Of a stretch of DNA of 64,000 nucleotides, positions 5,772 through 49,499 are shown one piece after another. Below the pieces are notes generated by a model. The model was not told where the DNA came from and made no database searches. It saw nothing but the letters and a program-made list of their open reading frames with translations. Position 1 is the first letter of the stretch. Each line of letters begins with the position of its first letter. The stretch is from an uncultured Clostridia bacterium. Lineage in GTDB: Bacteria > Bacillota > Clostridia > Christensenellales > UBA1242. A program made the position numbers and the translations under genes. The stretch spans positions 67,140-131,139 of the forward strand of contig CANREZ010000002.1 in assembly GCA_947629745.1 (NCBI GenBank). Reading direction: 5' to 3'.

Positions 5772-6479
5772 ATGGAAAAAGGTAAGATAAACAAATTATT
5801 AGGTATAGCGATGTTCGTCGTGGCACTCATCCTGATTGCGGGGATTGTCACTGGCGTTACCTATGCCTATTTTAGAGGTCAGGACGAGAAGAGCGGCAAT
5901 ATTACTCTCTCTGACCCTATCACACTACAAGTGTTAGCGGCAGAAGATGACAAGATGACTGCCGGTGTCACTATCACCGGAGATACGGATAGTAAACTCG
6001 TGCCGGGCGGGCAGATGACTTTGCGCTCAGGAGTTAAGGTAAAACAAGGCAACACCAAGGTACTCCTAAGGGCTTTAGTGATAGTCAACGTGGCAAGTCC
6101 AGCGGGTGCAGATAGCACTGCTCTAAATAATGCAATACTAGAGTCGATATTCTCCACAATGAATGCACAGATGGATAATGCCAAGTGGAGGAGTTATGAG
6201 GGTTATCTATATTATGTTGGGGACAAAGCATCCTCGACCAATATAGGCACAATCGTGCTACCTGAGATTGATTCGAGCGAAAGTGACCAAGATATATATC
6301 TATTCAATAATAGGGTAGTGAGCCTTGGCGGGAATGTCGCGAGCGAGATGAATGACAATTTTCAGAACGCTACTATATCTATTACTATCAAGTATCAGGC
6401 AATACAATCTTATCTATCGGGCAACGAGCAGAATATAGCATATGTCAGTACTATTATGGATAGCGTATTTGCAGCATAG
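5772..6479 (+). CDS. Secreted protein with SipW-type signal peptide (TasA/CalY-like)
   Basis: Hydrophobic stretch ending GVTYAYF; LVPGG; C-terminal FQNATISITIKYQAIQ. Confidence 0.65.
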   Translation: MEKGKINKLLGIAMFVVALILIAGIVTGVTYAYFRGQDEKSGNITLSDPITLQVLAAEDDKMTAGVTITGDTDSKLVPGGQMTLRSGVKVKQGNTKVLLRALVIVNVASPAGADSTALNNAILESIFSTMNAQMDNAKWRSYEGYLYYVGDKASSTNIGTIVLPEIDSSESDQDIYLFNNRVVSLGGNVASEMNDNFQNATISITIKYQAIQSYLSGNEQNIAYVSTIMDSVFAA

Positions 6480-28734: not shown

Positions 28735-28833
28735 GTTCGCGCAGGGGTGTGCTTGCACACCGAAGGCCGGAGCGAGTACGTTCGAATCGATTGCGAGAGC
28801 AATCACAGGGGGACCTGTCCGCCATTAGCGCCA
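28735..28833. repeat. Structured inverted echo of the tRNA-Thr 3' end with inserted hairpins
   Basis: gttcgaatc[gattgc-gaga-gcaatc][acagg-ggga-cctgt]ccgccattagcgcca vs tRNA gttcgaatcccgccattagctcca. Confidence 0.85.
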
Positions 28834-28839
28834 CAAAAA

Positions 28840-43402: not shown

Positions 43403-43467
43403 AATTATTTTGGTTATACTACACAAGTAACATTGTGTTTTATAATAATGTTTTCAAAAGGAGGAAA

Positions 43468-45807
43468 ATGGAAAACATGAAAAAATGCCTTACGGGAGTG
43501 TTAGCATTGCTTGTTTTATTCGTCGGGTGTTTTATCGTCAATGCATGTGGCGCTGAGGTCAAATTGTCCAACGCTTATGTAGAAGACGGCACACTAGAGA
43601 CAACTGTCGGATTGAACGAGCAAGTAGTAACAGACAACGTCGTGGCACACTTCGAGTTTAGTGATGGAATAGAAGTTGTTGCCCAAGCAAGTGTACTAAC
43701 ATTCTCCAGCGTTGATACCTCAACTGCAGGTGCTAAGACACTCAAGATTAGTTATGTCTACAATGGCATTACATTTAGTTTTGATGTATCTATTACCGTT
43801 ACCGATGAGGGTCAACAAAGTAGTAGCCTGTTGACGAATTTTTCCAGCGAGTTGTTGACAGATTACAATGCAAATAAGTCTGCTACAGGGCAGCATGATG
43901 GATTCAAGATTACCGATCGTCCATTATTTGTTGGCGACGACAATCCATTCAATTTTAGATTAGTCGCAAATGGTATTGACGAGAACGGTGACTTAGTCGT
44001 AGGCTCCGAGAACTTGACCATTGAGACCACGATGAAGGTCGAGCACAAAGTTTCTGGGGGGGGGTTCGTTGAACTCACCGGAGCCGATCTTGAAGAATAT
44101 GTAAGAATCATCACAGACACGAACGAATTAGACTTCACTCAAAAGGCAGCAAATGAAAATGCAGTATTTAGAGTAACAGTCACTGCTACAAATATTGACC
44201 CAGTGCTATTCACTGGCAATAGTAGTTTTAGCACCGAACTAACCATTGTCGATGGTTGGAATGTATATGATGCAAAGGATCTAAGTTTGTTTGATAATGT
44301 CCCTGACCACTATGGATATACTGATGTCAATGAGGGTTGGGCTGCATTGAAACAAAGTTGGGAACTAAAAGATAGCTGGAAATCACAAGGTGTCACTACA
44401 TATAAGGACGTCACTACCAACGGAATTATTTTGCAAAGTGACATAGAATTACACGATAGCGATATCCCATCTGCATATTTTGTAAGCGATAGTATCGCAA
44501 GCAGTTGGAGTAATATCCCACAGGGTCTAAATGTCGTTGGAGCCCTACGCAATAGGACCAATAGCGATGTTTATGGCAGAGAAATTGTGGATGCTTCGTT
44601 CAATATGTACGGTAATTATTTCCAAGTGGATGCTTCGAAATTATCCCGTGCAGTAACCGAAAAGGAAAATGACGGAATTAGCGCAGCTAGCCAATTCGTT
44701 GGCGTTGAGGACGATAACAATCCTGAGACTTGGGGAACAGGGCACGCACTGACGATGAGCACCGCTCTATTTGCTATTGGCCGTGGCAACAATACTTACG
44801 TAGGTCTAGAGAATACTGCAAATATCCAGGATGTTTCCTTCCTAGGTAATGCACAACGTAGCCAACAATCCAAATATTCCGGTGGAATTTCCGGACTAAA
44901 GACTTATGGACTCACCGCAACTTGGGATAATATCATATATCAAGATTTCTACAATGGATTTAATGTTACTGAAATTAGGAACAATGGACACTACGAACTC
45001 ACTAATTCAAAAGGTTTCAATTGCTATTCCATGCTCATCTTCTGCTGGGGCAGCAATGACCTAGTAGTCGAGAACTGCGAATTGAAGGGTGCAGGTGGCC
45101 CAGTGTTAGTTGCTGACCACACCACAGATGGCACAGGAGGAGTTGAGTATAATCCAGAGACTGGTGCGGGTGGACAACCTGTTCATGTCAATTTCATCAA
45201 TTGTGATCTTGAGAGTCTTGTTGATGGCAAGGAGCCATGGTTTGTTACATATGGAGCACAAGACATCGTCACTAAATTAAAAACTAGCATAGGTCAATTA
45301 TTGGGCAAAGCTCAATTATTCCAAACTAATCAAGCCTTACAGTATTTGTATCCAGAAATTTCTACTTTACCACAAAAAACTGCAACCAAAAAGGTTGATG
45401 GTTATGAAGGTGACTATCTGAATGCAATTGCATTCTTTATGAAAGACGGTGCAGTTGAGTTAACAAGTCTTGTCAATTTAAGAGGATATGTAAGGGTATT
45501 TAATAGTAGAACTGAATATGAGGCATATTATGATGCTGAAGATCCAGTAAAGAATAACTATGGACTAGATATGGAAGAAGATTTAACTATTAAAAATTAT
45601 GTCCAATCTAATCACAACTACTACTTCCAATCCAATACAGGTGGCTATGTGTCTTCTGCATTTGATGGAACTAATGCAGCTGATACCACAGTAACAAATC
45701 TTTCACAAGGTAAATTCTATTTCTATGGTGACCTGCTAAATATCTATATGGGTAATGGCATGGGAGCTATTATCAGCATGTGGGACGCACAAGTCCAAGC
45801 CGGCTAG
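43468..45807 (+). CDS. Large lipoprotein with Ig-like domain and beta-helical region
   Basis: AGGAGG RBS; VNAC lipobox; VDTSTAGAKT.KISY (Big_3-like); in-frame G9 at 44056-44064. Confidence 0.7.
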   Translation: MENMKKCLTGVLALLVLFVGCFIVNACGAEVKLSNAYVEDGTLETTVGLNEQVVTDNVVAHFEFSDGIEVVAQASVLTFSSVDTSTAGAKTLKISYVYNGITFSFDVSITVTDEGQQSSSLLTNFSSELLTDYNANKSATGQHDGFKITDRPLFVGDDNPFNFRLVANGIDENGDLVVGSENLTIETTMKVEHKVSGGGFVELTGADLEEYVRIITDTNELDFTQKAANENAVFRVTVTATNIDPVLFTGNSSFSTELTIVDGWNVYDAKDLSLFDNVPDHYGYTDVNEGWAALKQSWELKDSWKSQGVTTYKDVTTNGIILQSDIELHDSDIPSAYFVSDSIASSWSNIPQGLNVVGALRNRTNSDVYGREIVDASFNMYGNYFQVDASKLSRAVTEKENDGISAASQFVGVEDDNNPETWGTGHALTMSTALFAIGRGNNTYVGLENTANIQDVSFLGNAQRSQQSKYSGGISGLKTYGLTATWDNIIYQDFYNGFNVTEIRNNGHYELTNSKGFNCYSMLIFCWGSNDLVVENCELKGAGGPVLVADHTTDGTGGVEYNPETGAGGQPVHVNFINCDLESLVDGKEPWFVTYGAQDIVTKLKTSIGQLLGKAQLFQTNQALQYLYPEISTLPQKTATKKVDGYEGDYLNAIAFFMKDGAVELTSLVNLRGYVRVFNSRTEYEAYYDAEDPVKNNYGLDMEEDLTIKNYVQSNHNYYFQSNTGGYVSSAFDGTNAADTTVTNLSQGKFYFYGDLLNIYMGNGMGAIISMWDAQVQAG

Positions 45808-45901
45808 ATATAACTACAAGATAGAATGTGACATATCTCAAAATTATTAGTAAAAATGTGAGATATAAATTCCATGCAGGAAAACACATTTAATAAATAA
45901 A

Positions 45902-45979
45902 CAAAAAAAAAGAAGCAAGCAATTGCTTCTTTTTTTTGTTTGTATTAAAAGCATCTAGTAGCCCTAGATGCTTTTAATA
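45902..45979. terminator. Two adjacent terminator hairpins
   Basis: aaaagaagcaa-gcaa-ttgcttctttt and attaaaagcatctag-tagcc-ctagatgcttttaat. Confidence 0.7.
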
Positions 45980-46078
45980 TTTATGAGGATAAATTATCCC
46001 ATATATAGATAGATGTAATTAATAAAATTATCTCATGCTCACATATTAAATATTTTCGTCCAGAGGCCGTGTTAAGAA

Positions 46079-46216
46079 AGAGCGTGGTTCTCGGGATGTT
46101 TGTGTGATAACACAAATCCGGGGACCCGAGCGTCCCAAACCGTCTCGAAGAGACTGGTTGGGGGTTCGCTGCAAGATATTGCAGGGTGTGCGGATAGCAC
46201 ACAGACTCCCTCTGGG
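46079..46216. repeat. Structured inverted echo of tRNA-Arg with five inserted hairpins
   Basis: ggttgggggttcg (46156-46168) and actccctctgg (46205-46215) equal the tRNA T-arm/acceptor, split by [ctgcaa-gata-ttgcag]g[gtgtgc-ggata-gcacac]ag. Confidence 0.85.
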
Positions 46217-46242
46217 ATAAGTGAAGTTTTTTGATAAAAAAA

Positions 46243-46319
46243 TGGTGCGTCCAGAGGGAGTCGAACCCCCAACCTTTGGTTCCGTAGACCAACGCTCTAT
46301 CCAATTGAGCTATGAACGC
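46243..46319 (-). tRNA. tRNA-Arg(ACG)
   Basis: gcgttcatagctc...ttggt-ctACGga-accaa...gttcgact...tggacgcacca. Confidence 0.95.
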
Positions 46320-46499
46320 ACGCAAATATTTATTAACTATTAGACTATATACCAACATGACCTAATTGTCAAGTAAATATTTTTCATAACGCAAAAATTA
46401 TTCAGCAATTGTGCTAGCCCTAACTAAATTTCGCGTCAAAACTATTGACTAGGGAAATTGTTTTGCTTAAAATTAAAGAAAGGTAAAAGGGTGAGCATA

Positions 46500-48142: not shown

Positions 48143-48829
48143 ATGAAATCTAGGATTGCAATGTATATATTTTTTTCTATTCTATGCGTAGTTGGGATAG
48201 CGCTGTATATGGTTCGTCCTGACTTTCCATTCTTTAATGTGACCATGAGCGCAGGAGCAGGACTAATTGGGGCAATATTTGTGGCTGTCAGCCTCGAGGC
48301 AATCAATGGCTATGAGAAGCGTAGATACACCCTCTTTGTTCAAAAAGAGATATTATCCGGAGCGCGCAGTGTGTTAAAGAATTTTTACTGGGTAGTATTC
48401 AAAATGTTCCTAAAATATGACATGGATATACCTAGTCCTTGCAGTCTAGATGAGGAGACGGATATAGGAGGAATTTTTGCCGAGATTAGACGTCATATTG
48501 GGGAGAACGCGGAGATTGACGGGCAAATACTCAGCAAAATTACTGCCAAGGTGGATGACTGCATTGACGCCTTCGATAGGCTAAATTCCACTATTCACAA
48601 GAATATGGCAGTGTATGTGGCAGGAGGGATACTCACTGAGGGTGAGATAGTGTATCTATCTAGTATACATGAAGAGCTAAGGGAAGTGGACGCCAGTAGC
48701 AACATGACAGAGCTACTAGATAACCTCATTCGCCTGTACGACTTAATCTCAAAAAGCGAAGTGCTAAGGGTGCAGGTGGCAGACATTCTTTGCAAGCAAT
48801 ATAGCACAAAAAAGTCCTCAAATATTTGA
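48143..48829 (+). CDS. Hypothetical protein, two N-terminal TMs
   Basis: GAGG RBS; 228-aa ORF; terminator overlaps the stop. Confidence 0.6.
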   Translation: MKSRIAMYIFFSILCVVGIALYMVRPDFPFFNVTMSAGAGLIGAIFVAVSLEAINGYEKRRYTLFVQKEILSGARSVLKNFYWVVFKMFLKYDMDIPSPCSLDEETDIGGIFAEIRRHIGENAEIDGQILSKITAKVDDCIDAFDRLNSTIHKNMAVYVAGGILTEGEIVYLSSIHEELREVDASSNMTELLDNLIRLYDLISKSEVLRVQVADILCKQYSTKKSSNI

Positions 48830-48862
48830 GGACTATTTTTTCAATTACTGTGCTAATGGATA

Positions 48863-49450
48863 TCATTCTTGGTCTTTTGTAATGATACAGGCTATCATTT
48901 GACCGGTAGCCAGCATAGCCATGATGGTGGAGACTAACATATTCACACTAAATGGTGAGGCTATGCCTACTGCGTTTTGTAATAATTCATTTAGGATGAA
49001 TCCTGTAAGGGTCATGACAGCAAGAATTGAAACGAATACAATTGATGGGATGATGCAGGAGTTAAAGAATATCTCTAGTATATTGAATATTATAGACAAC
49101 AGTGCAAATAACCATATAATTATGGTGAATACTATACACAGGATGTATCTCATATTTTGGGTCTTTAGTATCTGCATTCCCACTAATTTTGCGGCCTGCT
49201 TGTGATTGCCTTCATCCTTTAATCTAGTAATATCTTCCTCAAATGATTCGCTCGATCTTCCCACATTCGCTAGCATATCTATAGCGCTAACATGGACTGT
49301 CACGTCGGTCACTTCTGCATCAGCTGTTGTCTGGTACTTAATATTCATCTTGATGCATGGCAAGAATGTGAATACTACGAGAATGCACACAAATATTGTG
49401 CTTAGTATCGACATGATGATAGATGTCTTAGAATAAACTTTTTCTTCCAT
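48863..49450 (-). CDS. Hypothetical 4-TM membrane protein
   Basis: AGGAG RBS; hydrophobic segments. Confidence 0.6.
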   Translation of the reverse strand: MEEKVYSKTSIIMSILSTIFVCILVVFTFLPCIKMNIKYQTTADAEVTDVTVHVSAIDMLANVGRSSESFEEDITRLKDEGNHKQAAKLVGMQILKTQNMRYILCIVFTIIIWLFALLSIIFNILEIFFNSCIIPSIVFVSILAVMTLTGFILNELLQNAVGIASPFSVNMLVSTIMAMLATGQMIACIITKDQE

Positions 49451-49499
49451 AAACACTCCTTATTACATGATAACATTTTTTATCTTTTTTGCAAAACAT

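Follow-up and report, generated by a model that had tools for sequence, protein, structure and literature searches.

An inverted partial copy of tRNA-Arg(ACG) behind its own gene in an uncultured Clostridia bacterium, and related gene-less elements at other tRNA genes

Introduction

Mobile DNA classically lands at tRNA genes, usually in the form of islands of kilobase size that carry an integrase. We describe here a hairpin-rich stretch of ~160 bases in the 3' flank of the tRNA-Arg(ACG) gene of an uncultured Clostridia bacterium (minus strand, downstream of CCA), which we call the Arg echo. It was noticed in a window of 64,000 nucleotides, the whole stretch of DNA that was analysed (positions 67140-131139 of contig C2 of this genome, G000). 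The Arg echo is a degenerate, tail-to-tail inverted partial copy of the tRNA-Arg (nt 69 to ~22) followed by a direct copy of nt 63-72. It has counterparts at other tRNA genes of the same genome and of its relatives, and our tentative explanation is that targeted insertion or duplication at tRNA stem-loops, in this case at the T-loop, left it as a scar in the DNA, and that it is not a device for pairing with the tRNA.

The closest described systems are four. The first is that of the attL/attR remnants of tyrosine-integrase elements, including cargo-less derivatives and the partial-tRNA arrays of streamlined genomes; crossovers in tRNA genes are said to obey a sublocation rule going back to Williams in 2002. 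Partial tRNAs left by integration (PMC9897764) and partial tRNAs in tycheposons (10.1101/2020.12.28.424599) have been described. As far as the accessible parts of these two sources go, the elements described here differ in having an inverted copy across the breakpoint, two hairpins in the loop of that copy, and bodies in both orientations. The likenesses are considerable: a direct copy of the tRNA end bounds the insert, the breakpoints fall within the T-loop or anticodon loop or next to it, elements accumulate in tandem beside the tRNA, displaced copies decay, and relatives have full integrase islands at the same tRNA. Unlike such remnants, the present elements span only 100-190 bp and the genome has no integrase.

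Correia and BOX elements are small non-autonomous elements of the miniature inverted-repeat transposable element (MITE) or foldback type. The bodies described here are likewise small, gene-less and rich in hairpins, one sub-family (T3E-A, below) is multi-copy within genomes, and mutually pairing ends close the element, over 7 bp in the Arg echo and at loci L002 and L006 of relatives. In a MITE the ends are fixed, whereas here the adjacent tRNA supplies them; 10-70 nt are duplicated rather than a few bases; and the Arg echo is single-copy, with no set of near-identical copies elsewhere in its genome.

Tandem inversion duplications and quasi-palindrome template switching are known from work on Salmonella and on human rearrangements. 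They share with the present elements the direct-inverted-direct order, junctions at palindromes, and no need of a dedicated enzyme. They differ in spanning kilobases rather than tens of bases, and the present elements are common to diverged strains and have conserved non-tRNA bodies at several loci. Finally, there are the split-guide RNAs, namely H/ACA guides and the bridge RNAs of IS110. In these, as here, hairpins separate two segments complementary to adjoining halves of a target, and the pairing would give a multi-way junction. The H/ACA proteins are archaeal or eukaryotic. Unlike in split guides, no partner protein gene accompanies the present elements (an IS110 transposase was not found in G000), the two halves match one and the same strand and leave no target base unpaired, and the geometry is kept in DNA and not in RNA.

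Results

Anatomy of the Arg echo

The tRNA-Arg(ACG) gene, with CCA encoded, occupies 46243-46319 on the minus strand (ARAGORN; Rfam RF00005, 67 bits). Directly after CCA there is a palindrome of A and T only, which reads T7-ATC-A6 on the minus strand (46227-46242) and is the symmetry centre between the 3' part of the tRNA and the inverted copy. After 11 unrelated bases comes an exact inverted copy of tRNA nt 58-69, 12 nt long, which covers the 3' part of the T-loop, the 3' strand of the T-stem and the start of the 3' strand of the acceptor (46204-46215). A second exact inverted block, 13 nt long, copies nt 46-58, that is, the variable region, the 5' strand of the T-stem and the 5' part of the T-loop (46156-46168). 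The 35 nt between the two blocks (46169-46203) fold as two hairpins, each with a 6-bp stem: hairpin D (46186-46202, loop GGATA on the + strand) and hairpin C (46169-46184, loop GATA on the + strand). G58 of the tRNA is present at either side of this insert. The original prediction, made from the letters alone, had the 13-nt match exactly right; the other match and the two-hairpin insert also exist, only it had put them at 11 nt (46205-46215) and 36 nt.

Farther from the tRNA, a long hairpin B (46128-46168; RNA and DNA folds) is made of the inverted T-arm block and its degenerate complement (46128-46141), with two G-U pairs on the + strand, and encloses an inner hairpin with a GAA triloop (46142-46154). 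Hairpin A (46086-46126; RNA fold) has an outer 9-bp stem with two U-G pairs on the + strand and an inner hairpin at 46098-46117 with the loop GATA. The stretch 46080-46097 is a degenerate inverted copy of tRNA nt 22-40 (3' strand of the D-stem, anticodon stem and loop), consisting of a 7-nt exact block for nt 22-28 and a remainder matched by eye. The weaker similarity to the D and anticodon arms and the further interleaved hairpins that had been predicted are both there. Then come the 9-nt motif TTTCTTAAC (46071-46079, minus strand) and, 4 nt beyond it, a direct copy, 10 nt long, of tRNA nt 63-72 (46057-46066; minus-strand sequence CCTCTGGACG), as had also been claimed. The motif is a weak feature noticed after the fact; it also stands a few bases ahead of the direct tRNA copy in T3E-A. 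The direct copy sits 177 nt downstream, starts in the 3' strand of the T-stem (nt 63) and, in the fold, pairs with 46209-46215 of the inverted 58-69 block, which closes the whole element. The inverted blocks run in descending order of the tRNA (58-69, 46-58, 22-28), and the direct block 63-72 is last.

Chance, folding and strain support

The chained inverted score of the Arg flank is 25, a value reached in 0/1000 dinucleotide shuffles. When a tRNA was compared to the 3' flank of another tRNA, 3/1049 such mismatched pairs reached 18 and 0/1049 reached 20. The direct 10-mer taken alone is weaker, shuffles reaching it at 0.015. In RNA folding against shuffles, the 176-nt stretch has a z of -5.4 on the + strand and -3.9 on the minus strand; in DNA folding, the strands are equally good (-4.65 on + and -4.88 on -). 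The RNA fold is better on the + strand (-76.1 versus -59.8 kcal/mol) because G-U pairs form there where the minus strand has mismatches.

DNA runs with parts of the region come from animal-gut metagenomes. A contig from run X1 spans 46036-46245 with zero differences, X1 being possibly the source sample. From run X4, of another study, a 394-nt contig spans 45866-46267 (402 nt) with 22 substitutions and 14 gap letters. This contig is diverged yet carries the Arg echo, so that the echo is also in a diverged strain. Each contig has fewer than 31 letters on the tRNA side, and formally neither bridges the boundary between tRNA and echo. The changes in X4 fall on 7/44 unpaired and 5/115 paired positions (Fisher p 0.02). 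Each of the four hairpin loops differs, with two substitutions in the loop of C and a loop shorter by 1 nt in D, and the stems of B, C and D are untouched. In hairpin A, the changes at 46119 and 46123 keep pairing on the + strand, and those at 46086 and 46087 break the base of the stem.

At permissive E-values, Rfam gave no gathering-level match in 46057-46242, only a 23-nt match of 15.5 bits (E 4.2), and the elements of relatives are likewise without a family match. Rfam matches at 45858-46044 were set aside as terminator-like noise.

Echoes at other tRNA genes of the genome

An inverted self-copy was called at a score of at least 18, in the 27 tRNAs of G000 whose 3' flank holds no other tRNA. 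Six of the 27 have one (Thr-cgt, Thr-ggt, Arg-acg, Tyr, Gln-ctg and Ser-tga), and Asn scores 11; in 5' flanks the count is 1/26, only Ile. The expectation that such gapped inverted matches exceed their controls was borne out, both by the shuffles and by 6/27 flanks against 3/1049 mismatched pairs. Direct copies of the tRNA 3' end occur 160-200 nt downstream of Ser-cga, Thr-cgt, Asn, Tyr, Ser-tga and Arg-acg. At Tyr the unit and its terminator form a tandem repeat, whose second copy has an inverted anticodon arm of 23 nt. The Tyr and Gln elements align to each other outside the parts derived from tRNA. The Thr-ggt echo (28737-28839 of the window) starts 6 nt past CCA, where the final 15 nt of the tRNA recur as their complement with one mismatch, and has two hairpins ahead of the inverted T-loop. 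Since a minus-strand terminator (28732-28698) directly follows it, the Thr-ggt echo is inside the tRNA transcription unit.

Other recurrent sequences were observed in 3' flanks of G000. A third type of element follows Ser-cga (C1:177790-177980), Ser-gga (C1:48540-48733) and Thr-cgt (C2:22700-22882), with the common sequence gtgacactcgcattaag … tgctcgttattccgtcac(t)tcgttccttac and then, in decayed form, a copy of the tRNA from its T-loop to the 3' end. A repeated module stands after Leu-gag, Met, Gly-ccc and Asn (C1:152100-152344, C1:159626-159900, C1:60150-60414 and C7:42040-42150), and also in L003; it consists of tcgtc plus a terminator, a long hairpin CCCCACAAAAGG…TTTTTGTGGGG, and then CCCC. 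A hairpin like the latter also occurs within the 5' elements of relatives. After tRNA-Leu-tag (C5:48440-48640), four iteron-like repeats (cg)tacccccaa precede a terminator, which resembles one after the tRNA-Tyr array on C10.

The split two-hairpin design

The Arg echo belongs to a recurrent design, the second beside T3E-A, in which an inverted stem-loop copy has two adjacent hairpins in its loop. We scanned 209 distinct tRNA loci for it, a biased sample made of the whole of G000 and of loci fetched for other reasons. It was found in 7/200 3' flanks, from four genomes, in 0/208 5' flanks and in 1/2229 mismatched pairs; a direct copy split in the same way was found in 0/200 3' flanks and 1/208 5' flanks. 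The seven loci are Arg-acg, Thr-ggt and Gln-ctg of G000, Leu-caa of G001, Gln-ttg and Ile of G011, and Asn of G013, which upholds the earlier claim that the same topology occurs at different tRNAs. In six of the seven the insert is 30-39 nt with two hairpins of ~6 bp. Gln-ttg of G011 is split at a T-loop position identical to that of Arg, and Ile of G011 in the anticodon loop.

The T3E-A sub-family

Elements at tRNA-Asn of G000 and G001 and at Arg-tct and Leu-caa of G014 align and share covarying hairpins. From these founders of T3E-A a covariance model, R1, was built, and its matches were counted at E up to 0.01. T3E-A is ~130 nt long and has three hairpins that covary; the third, flanked by an A-run and a T-run, resembles a terminator. 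Sites include L100:207-337 (contig C7 of G000, after tRNA-Asn), G000 C16:13587-13711 and many relatives (L112-L141). R1 matches in 36/61 genomes of the family, with up to 7 per genome; in an order-wide sample outside the family, 8/97 genomes match, all weakly. In 47 aligned matches, 96% of cells are paired and 13/14 pairs have a compensatory change, which 0/500 shuffles reach; the alignment was fitted to the R1 model, which favours these pairing values. No match to T3E-A was found in phage or plasmid collections, and Rfam has no entry for it. The motif is a clean candidate for a new family entry.

Of 41 T3E-A matches examined, 35 are within 230 nt of a tRNA, 5 are in loci without a tRNA and one is 1149 nt away. 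The hosts, of at least 12 kinds, include Asn, Arg-tct, Arg-acg, Ser-tga, Ser-cga, Thr-cgt, Thr-ggt, Thr-tgt, Lys-ctt, Trp, Tyr, Ile and three Leu tRNAs, and in each case the tRNA-derived ends are cognate to the neighbouring tRNA. There are tandem arrays and mirrored 5'/3' configurations: 22 elements are on the 3' side and the same strand, 9 on the 5' side and the opposite strand, and none on the 5' side and the same strand. Five are on the 3' side and the opposite strand, four of them with flipped bodies and one from the array of a neighbour. In all configurations the conserved end …CTTAACGCGTCGCC abuts a displaced tRNA fragment that starts with CC, and the inverted piece derived from the target faces the working tRNA gene. 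From this pattern of position and strand it follows that orientation is set by DNA junctions, not by transcription.

A dif-like Xer site in T3E-A was also considered. The arms around hairpin 3 are faintly like L. lactis difSL, as given in the Methods of PMC2965235. Neither G000 nor the surroundings of the xer genes in G014, G042, G049 and G013 yielded a short-spacer counterpart in pattern searches, and the stem between the arms covaries like a terminator; this lead was dropped.

Elements in relatives

In relatives the layout is that of a tRNA, a terminator, an inverted copy across the breakpoint, a hairpin body and a direct copy of the tRNA end. At tRNA-Arg(ACG) of other genera, the terminator is followed by a contiguous inverted T-loop copy, a G+C-rich body of 70-100 nt and the direct copy of the 3' end. 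The latter was found at five such loci (L002, L006, L013, L019 and L110); from the T-loop on it is 21 nt long in L002, L006 and L013, and the terminator was copied too at L002, L006 and L110. The inverted T-loop copy lies 56-67 nt downstream in L002, L006 and L110, together with the direct copy, and also in L010. In three relatives covered for most tRNA loci (89 tRNAs), counting flanks of at least 150 nt without another tRNA, direct copies of at least 14 nt occur in 3/12, 3/13 and 7/23 of the 3' flanks and in 2/17, 2/11 and 8/22 of the 5' flanks.

On the 5' side of tRNA-Arg there are tandem units that hold tRNA nt 1-34 or 1-43, a body, and an inverted piece of nt 37-50. In L002, L015 and L007 this inverted piece follows the substitutions of the tRNA between species, the tracking that had been proposed as a check at the outset. 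Upstream of tRNA-Arg in L019 (1200-1493) there are three units of 88 nt; tandem 5' arrays at tRNA-Arg are also found in L002, L015, L007, L009, L018 and L108, the units of L108 holding a twice-repeated AAGTTCACC motif. TTAATAT or a near variant abuts +1 of the tRNA in several genera (L009, L015, L018, L019, L007 and L137), a position too near +1 for the -10 box of a normal leader.

G001, of the same genus as G000, has no echo at tRNA-Arg(ACG), and its flank there is not syntenic with that of G000; the X4 strain has the echo. Among seven flagged tRNAs, Asn alone is common to the two genomes. From these sequences, turnover within the genus appears to be fast.

Recombinases and islands

The sole PF00589 match in G000 is an Xer-like recombinase beside lexA, for which XerS is the best match, below the cut-off. 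Relatives do carry integrases beside tRNAs, those next to tRNA islands in G011, G014 and G022 among them. At tRNA-Arg(ACG), G022 has an island of 10.3 kb with an integrase and a 45-nt direct copy that starts in the anticodon loop. G012 has cargo islands without a recombinase at tRNA-Arg. Direct tRNA copies stand there at 1868 and at 6037; behind each of the two come a terminator and a 14-nt inverted copy that is the same at both, and a third inverted copy stands ahead of the first direct copy. A fragment in the G012 island (L110:1640-1670) is like the T-arm and acceptor end of a different tRNA, which suggests that elements from different tRNA sites end up nested. Of what is expected in a remnant of a tRNA-integrating element, the Arg echo has a bounding direct repeat (10 nt, weak alone) and a breakpoint in the T-loop, where the inverted copy is split at G58; an integrase was found neither in or beside the element nor elsewhere in the genome.

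Several other origins were rejected. A remnant of an IS110 bridge RNA or an IS200/IS605 guide RNA was set aside, PF01548, PF01797 and PF07282 having no match in G000. For a retro-copy of a mature tRNA, the direct copies of relatives include the terminator past CCA, and RVT_1 has no match. For an H/ACA-like guide, a group I or II intron, a retron and an integron attC, either the defining parts are missing or the sizes do not fit.

Locus and genome setting

The tRNA-Arg gene has a promoter-like site, TTGACA-17-TATAGT, at 46344-46372 on the minus strand, a consensus match only (11/12 in a consensus scan). Past the tRNA, the minus strand has its first terminator at 45904-45937, a bidirectional terminator-like hairpin. 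It is also the nearest one to the echo; the scan of 46057-46242 itself found no G+C-rich hairpin with a T-run, and the Arg echo is not the intrinsic terminator of the tRNA gene. A consensus scan found no promoter on the + strand for the Arg or Thr echo. An FTHFS gene (Pfam PF01268) adjoins the tRNA, and the open reading frames (ORFs) around the echo are otherwise ABC transporters and unknowns. An ORF of 790 amino acids and others of 228 and 197 amino acids near the tRNA (43435-45807 and 48143-49456) have no Pfam match at E 1e-5. ORFs of the window resembling SpoIVA, RecN, ArgR and NrdR were named from their first 60 residues without a family search; together with the FTHFS gene they indicate a reduced Bacillota. 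The assembly has 973 kb in 19 contigs, with 40% G+C and 42 tRNA genes, and is 95% complete.

Discussion

What is observed is the anatomy of the Arg echo, that such copies are enriched and recur in relatives, that there are direct duplications and mirror configurations, and that the echo is conserved at strain level; the class of elements is real. No description of it was found in the literature, and the original claim that it is undescribed has stood as far as literature and Rfam were searched. The same prediction held the elements to be tRNA-cognate, which the 6/27 and 7/200 flanks uphold, and described a four-way junction formed on pairing with the tRNA. A function by such pairing is not supported. 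The geometry is defined by DNA junctions and not by the direction of transcription; the direct duplications of tRNA end and terminator in the related elements, their tandem arrays, mirror 5'/3' forms and bodies in both orientations, and the fast turnover speak to the same effect.

Our preferred reading, to which we give a little less than an even chance, is that the Arg echo is a scar in the DNA of targeted insertion or duplication at the T-loop. A process typical of the lineage would insert or duplicate short cargo-less elements at the boundary of T-loop and T-stem in tRNA genes. It would begin with a break or strand exchange in the T-arm. The working gene would keep or regain a full 3' end, the old 3' end would be displaced downstream, where it would now be seen as the direct copy, and an inverted copy of the sequence spanning the breakpoint would be left beside the gene. 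The loop of the inverted T-arm would then bear two small hairpins, and further hairpins would accrete. We infer both this order of events and the nature of the process as targeted recombination. The Arg echo of today is probably inert, apart from being a stable, hairpin-rich spacer in or just behind the tRNA transcription unit.

A number of results weigh against the scar. In the 95%-complete genome no Resolvase, Y1_Tnp, RVT_1, IS110, TnpB-type, rve or integrase gene was found; mobile DNA is often lost from such assemblies. The presence of T3E-A bears no relation to recombinase content, with 6/10 Xer-only genomes and 19/31 genomes with two or more tyrosine recombinases having it. The Arg echo itself is a single copy in G000, blastn-short giving the element itself and chance matches of 12-15 nt; blastn in 40 relatives matched the tRNA part only; and a 17-nt pattern of the junction, sought in metagenome contigs, gave 38 loci, all chance. 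Its direct copy has only 10 nt and lacks the CACCA end. R1 finds nothing in the Arg echo at E up to 1 with default filters, and at best 3.8 bits with the filters off. Because R1 fails to detect it, we do not file the Arg echo under T3E-A; what the two have in common is the layout (tRNA, inverted copy, body, CTTAAC motif, direct copy starting with CC, the motif having been noticed after the fact) and the 9-nt junction motif. The loops changed more than the stems in X4, which fits a structural constraint that a dead scar does not need. Stems in palindromes could also be kept intact by templated correction, without selection. Finally, the scar leaves it unaccounted for why there are exactly two hairpins in the loop of the inverted arm.

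It is possible, but doubtful, that the Arg echo and its relatives go further than scars and form a new class of gene-less elements of ~80-190 bp that home to tRNA stem-loops, persist in Xer-only genomes, and have ends built from the target, one direct and one inverted. With ends built from the target tRNA, such elements would be able to sit beside any tRNA. If this were true, it would mean either a new mobilisation, by the host Xer, by replication-coupled fold-back insertion or by an unrecognised enzyme, or a domestication as a structured DNA or RNA module.

Unlikely, to our mind, is an origin with neither mobile element nor recombinase, in which a replication template switch, snapping back at the palindrome behind the tRNA, produced a direct-inverted-direct triplication of the tRNA 3' region, and decay and quasi-palindrome events added the hairpins. 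Much of the anatomy would be expected from it. The symmetry centre is a palindrome directly after CCA, T7-ATC-A6 in Arg; in Thr-ggt there is a 6-nt loop, and the complement of CCA is the first thing in the inverted copy. As far as nt 22, the inverted blocks keep the order of the reversed tRNA, and the palindromes are nested, hairpin B being the T-arm block with its own complement. Echoes would be cognate automatically, no enzyme gene would be needed, and none was found in G000. The 3' bias (6/27 versus 1/26) fits the terminator palindromes located there. A template switch leaves unexplained, however, the bodies of T3E-A conserved across tRNAs and genera, the mirror configuration on the 5' side, and the common junction motif and regular 30-39-nt two-hairpin insert in 6/7 split cases. 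In the relatives, moreover, an inverted tract of no more than 10-19 nt gives way to sequence other than reversed tRNA.

A functional structured RNA is about as unlikely, or a little more so; it and the template switch are the two serious alternatives. The RNA would be either a minus-strand 3' trailer of the tRNA transcript, antisense to the T-arm, that might control how the precursor matures or decays, or else a tRNA-like RNA read convergently from the + strand. The stretch does fold far better than shuffles, with the advantage of the + strand through G-U pairs, and the X4 strain alters loops, keeps stems, and has two stem changes that still pair on the + strand. The three hairpin loops of the Thr echo read CUUG, GAGA and GGGA on the + strand, which are stable RNA tetraloops, and the hairpins of T3E-A covary, subject to the fitting of that alignment to its model. 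Also in favour, the Arg echo lies between the tRNA and the first minus-strand terminator, and a terminator directly follows the Thr echo. Against an RNA, a strong terminator stands between tRNA and echo at Tyr and Gln, and the consensus scan found no promoter-like site on the + strand. The hints as to strand conflict: Arg points to +, T3E-A to the tRNA-sense strand. Since related elements are found on both strands with respect to the tRNA, and also flipped, complementarity to the tRNA is not kept at the RNA level, and the geometry of the DNA is. Conservation does not go beyond strain level in blastn against the 40 relatives, and there is no Rfam match.

Chance similarity or an artefact of assembly is hardly credible: partly palindromic T-loops (TTCGAA) inflate short inverted matches at Tyr, Gln and Thr, and the assembly is of metagenome type in 19 contigs, but the Arg T-loop TTCGACT is not palindromic, none of the 1000 shuffles reaches the score, none of the 1049 mismatched pairs reaches 20, and contigs from two studies carry the echo, one of them possibly from the source sample.

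Among the genomes sampled, elements of this kind stand at roughly a quarter to a third of the tRNA genes. Their practical consequences are that they look like tRNA fragments, that assemblies break at tRNA loci because of them, and that they can be mistaken for small RNAs. A family of gut Bacillota with genomes of ~1 Mb has gene-less elements of 100-190 bp to which the tRNA itself has contributed part of the sequence. Should these elements move, they would be among the smallest target-specific elements known; if they do not, they would be the record of a recurrent mutational process at tRNA genes.

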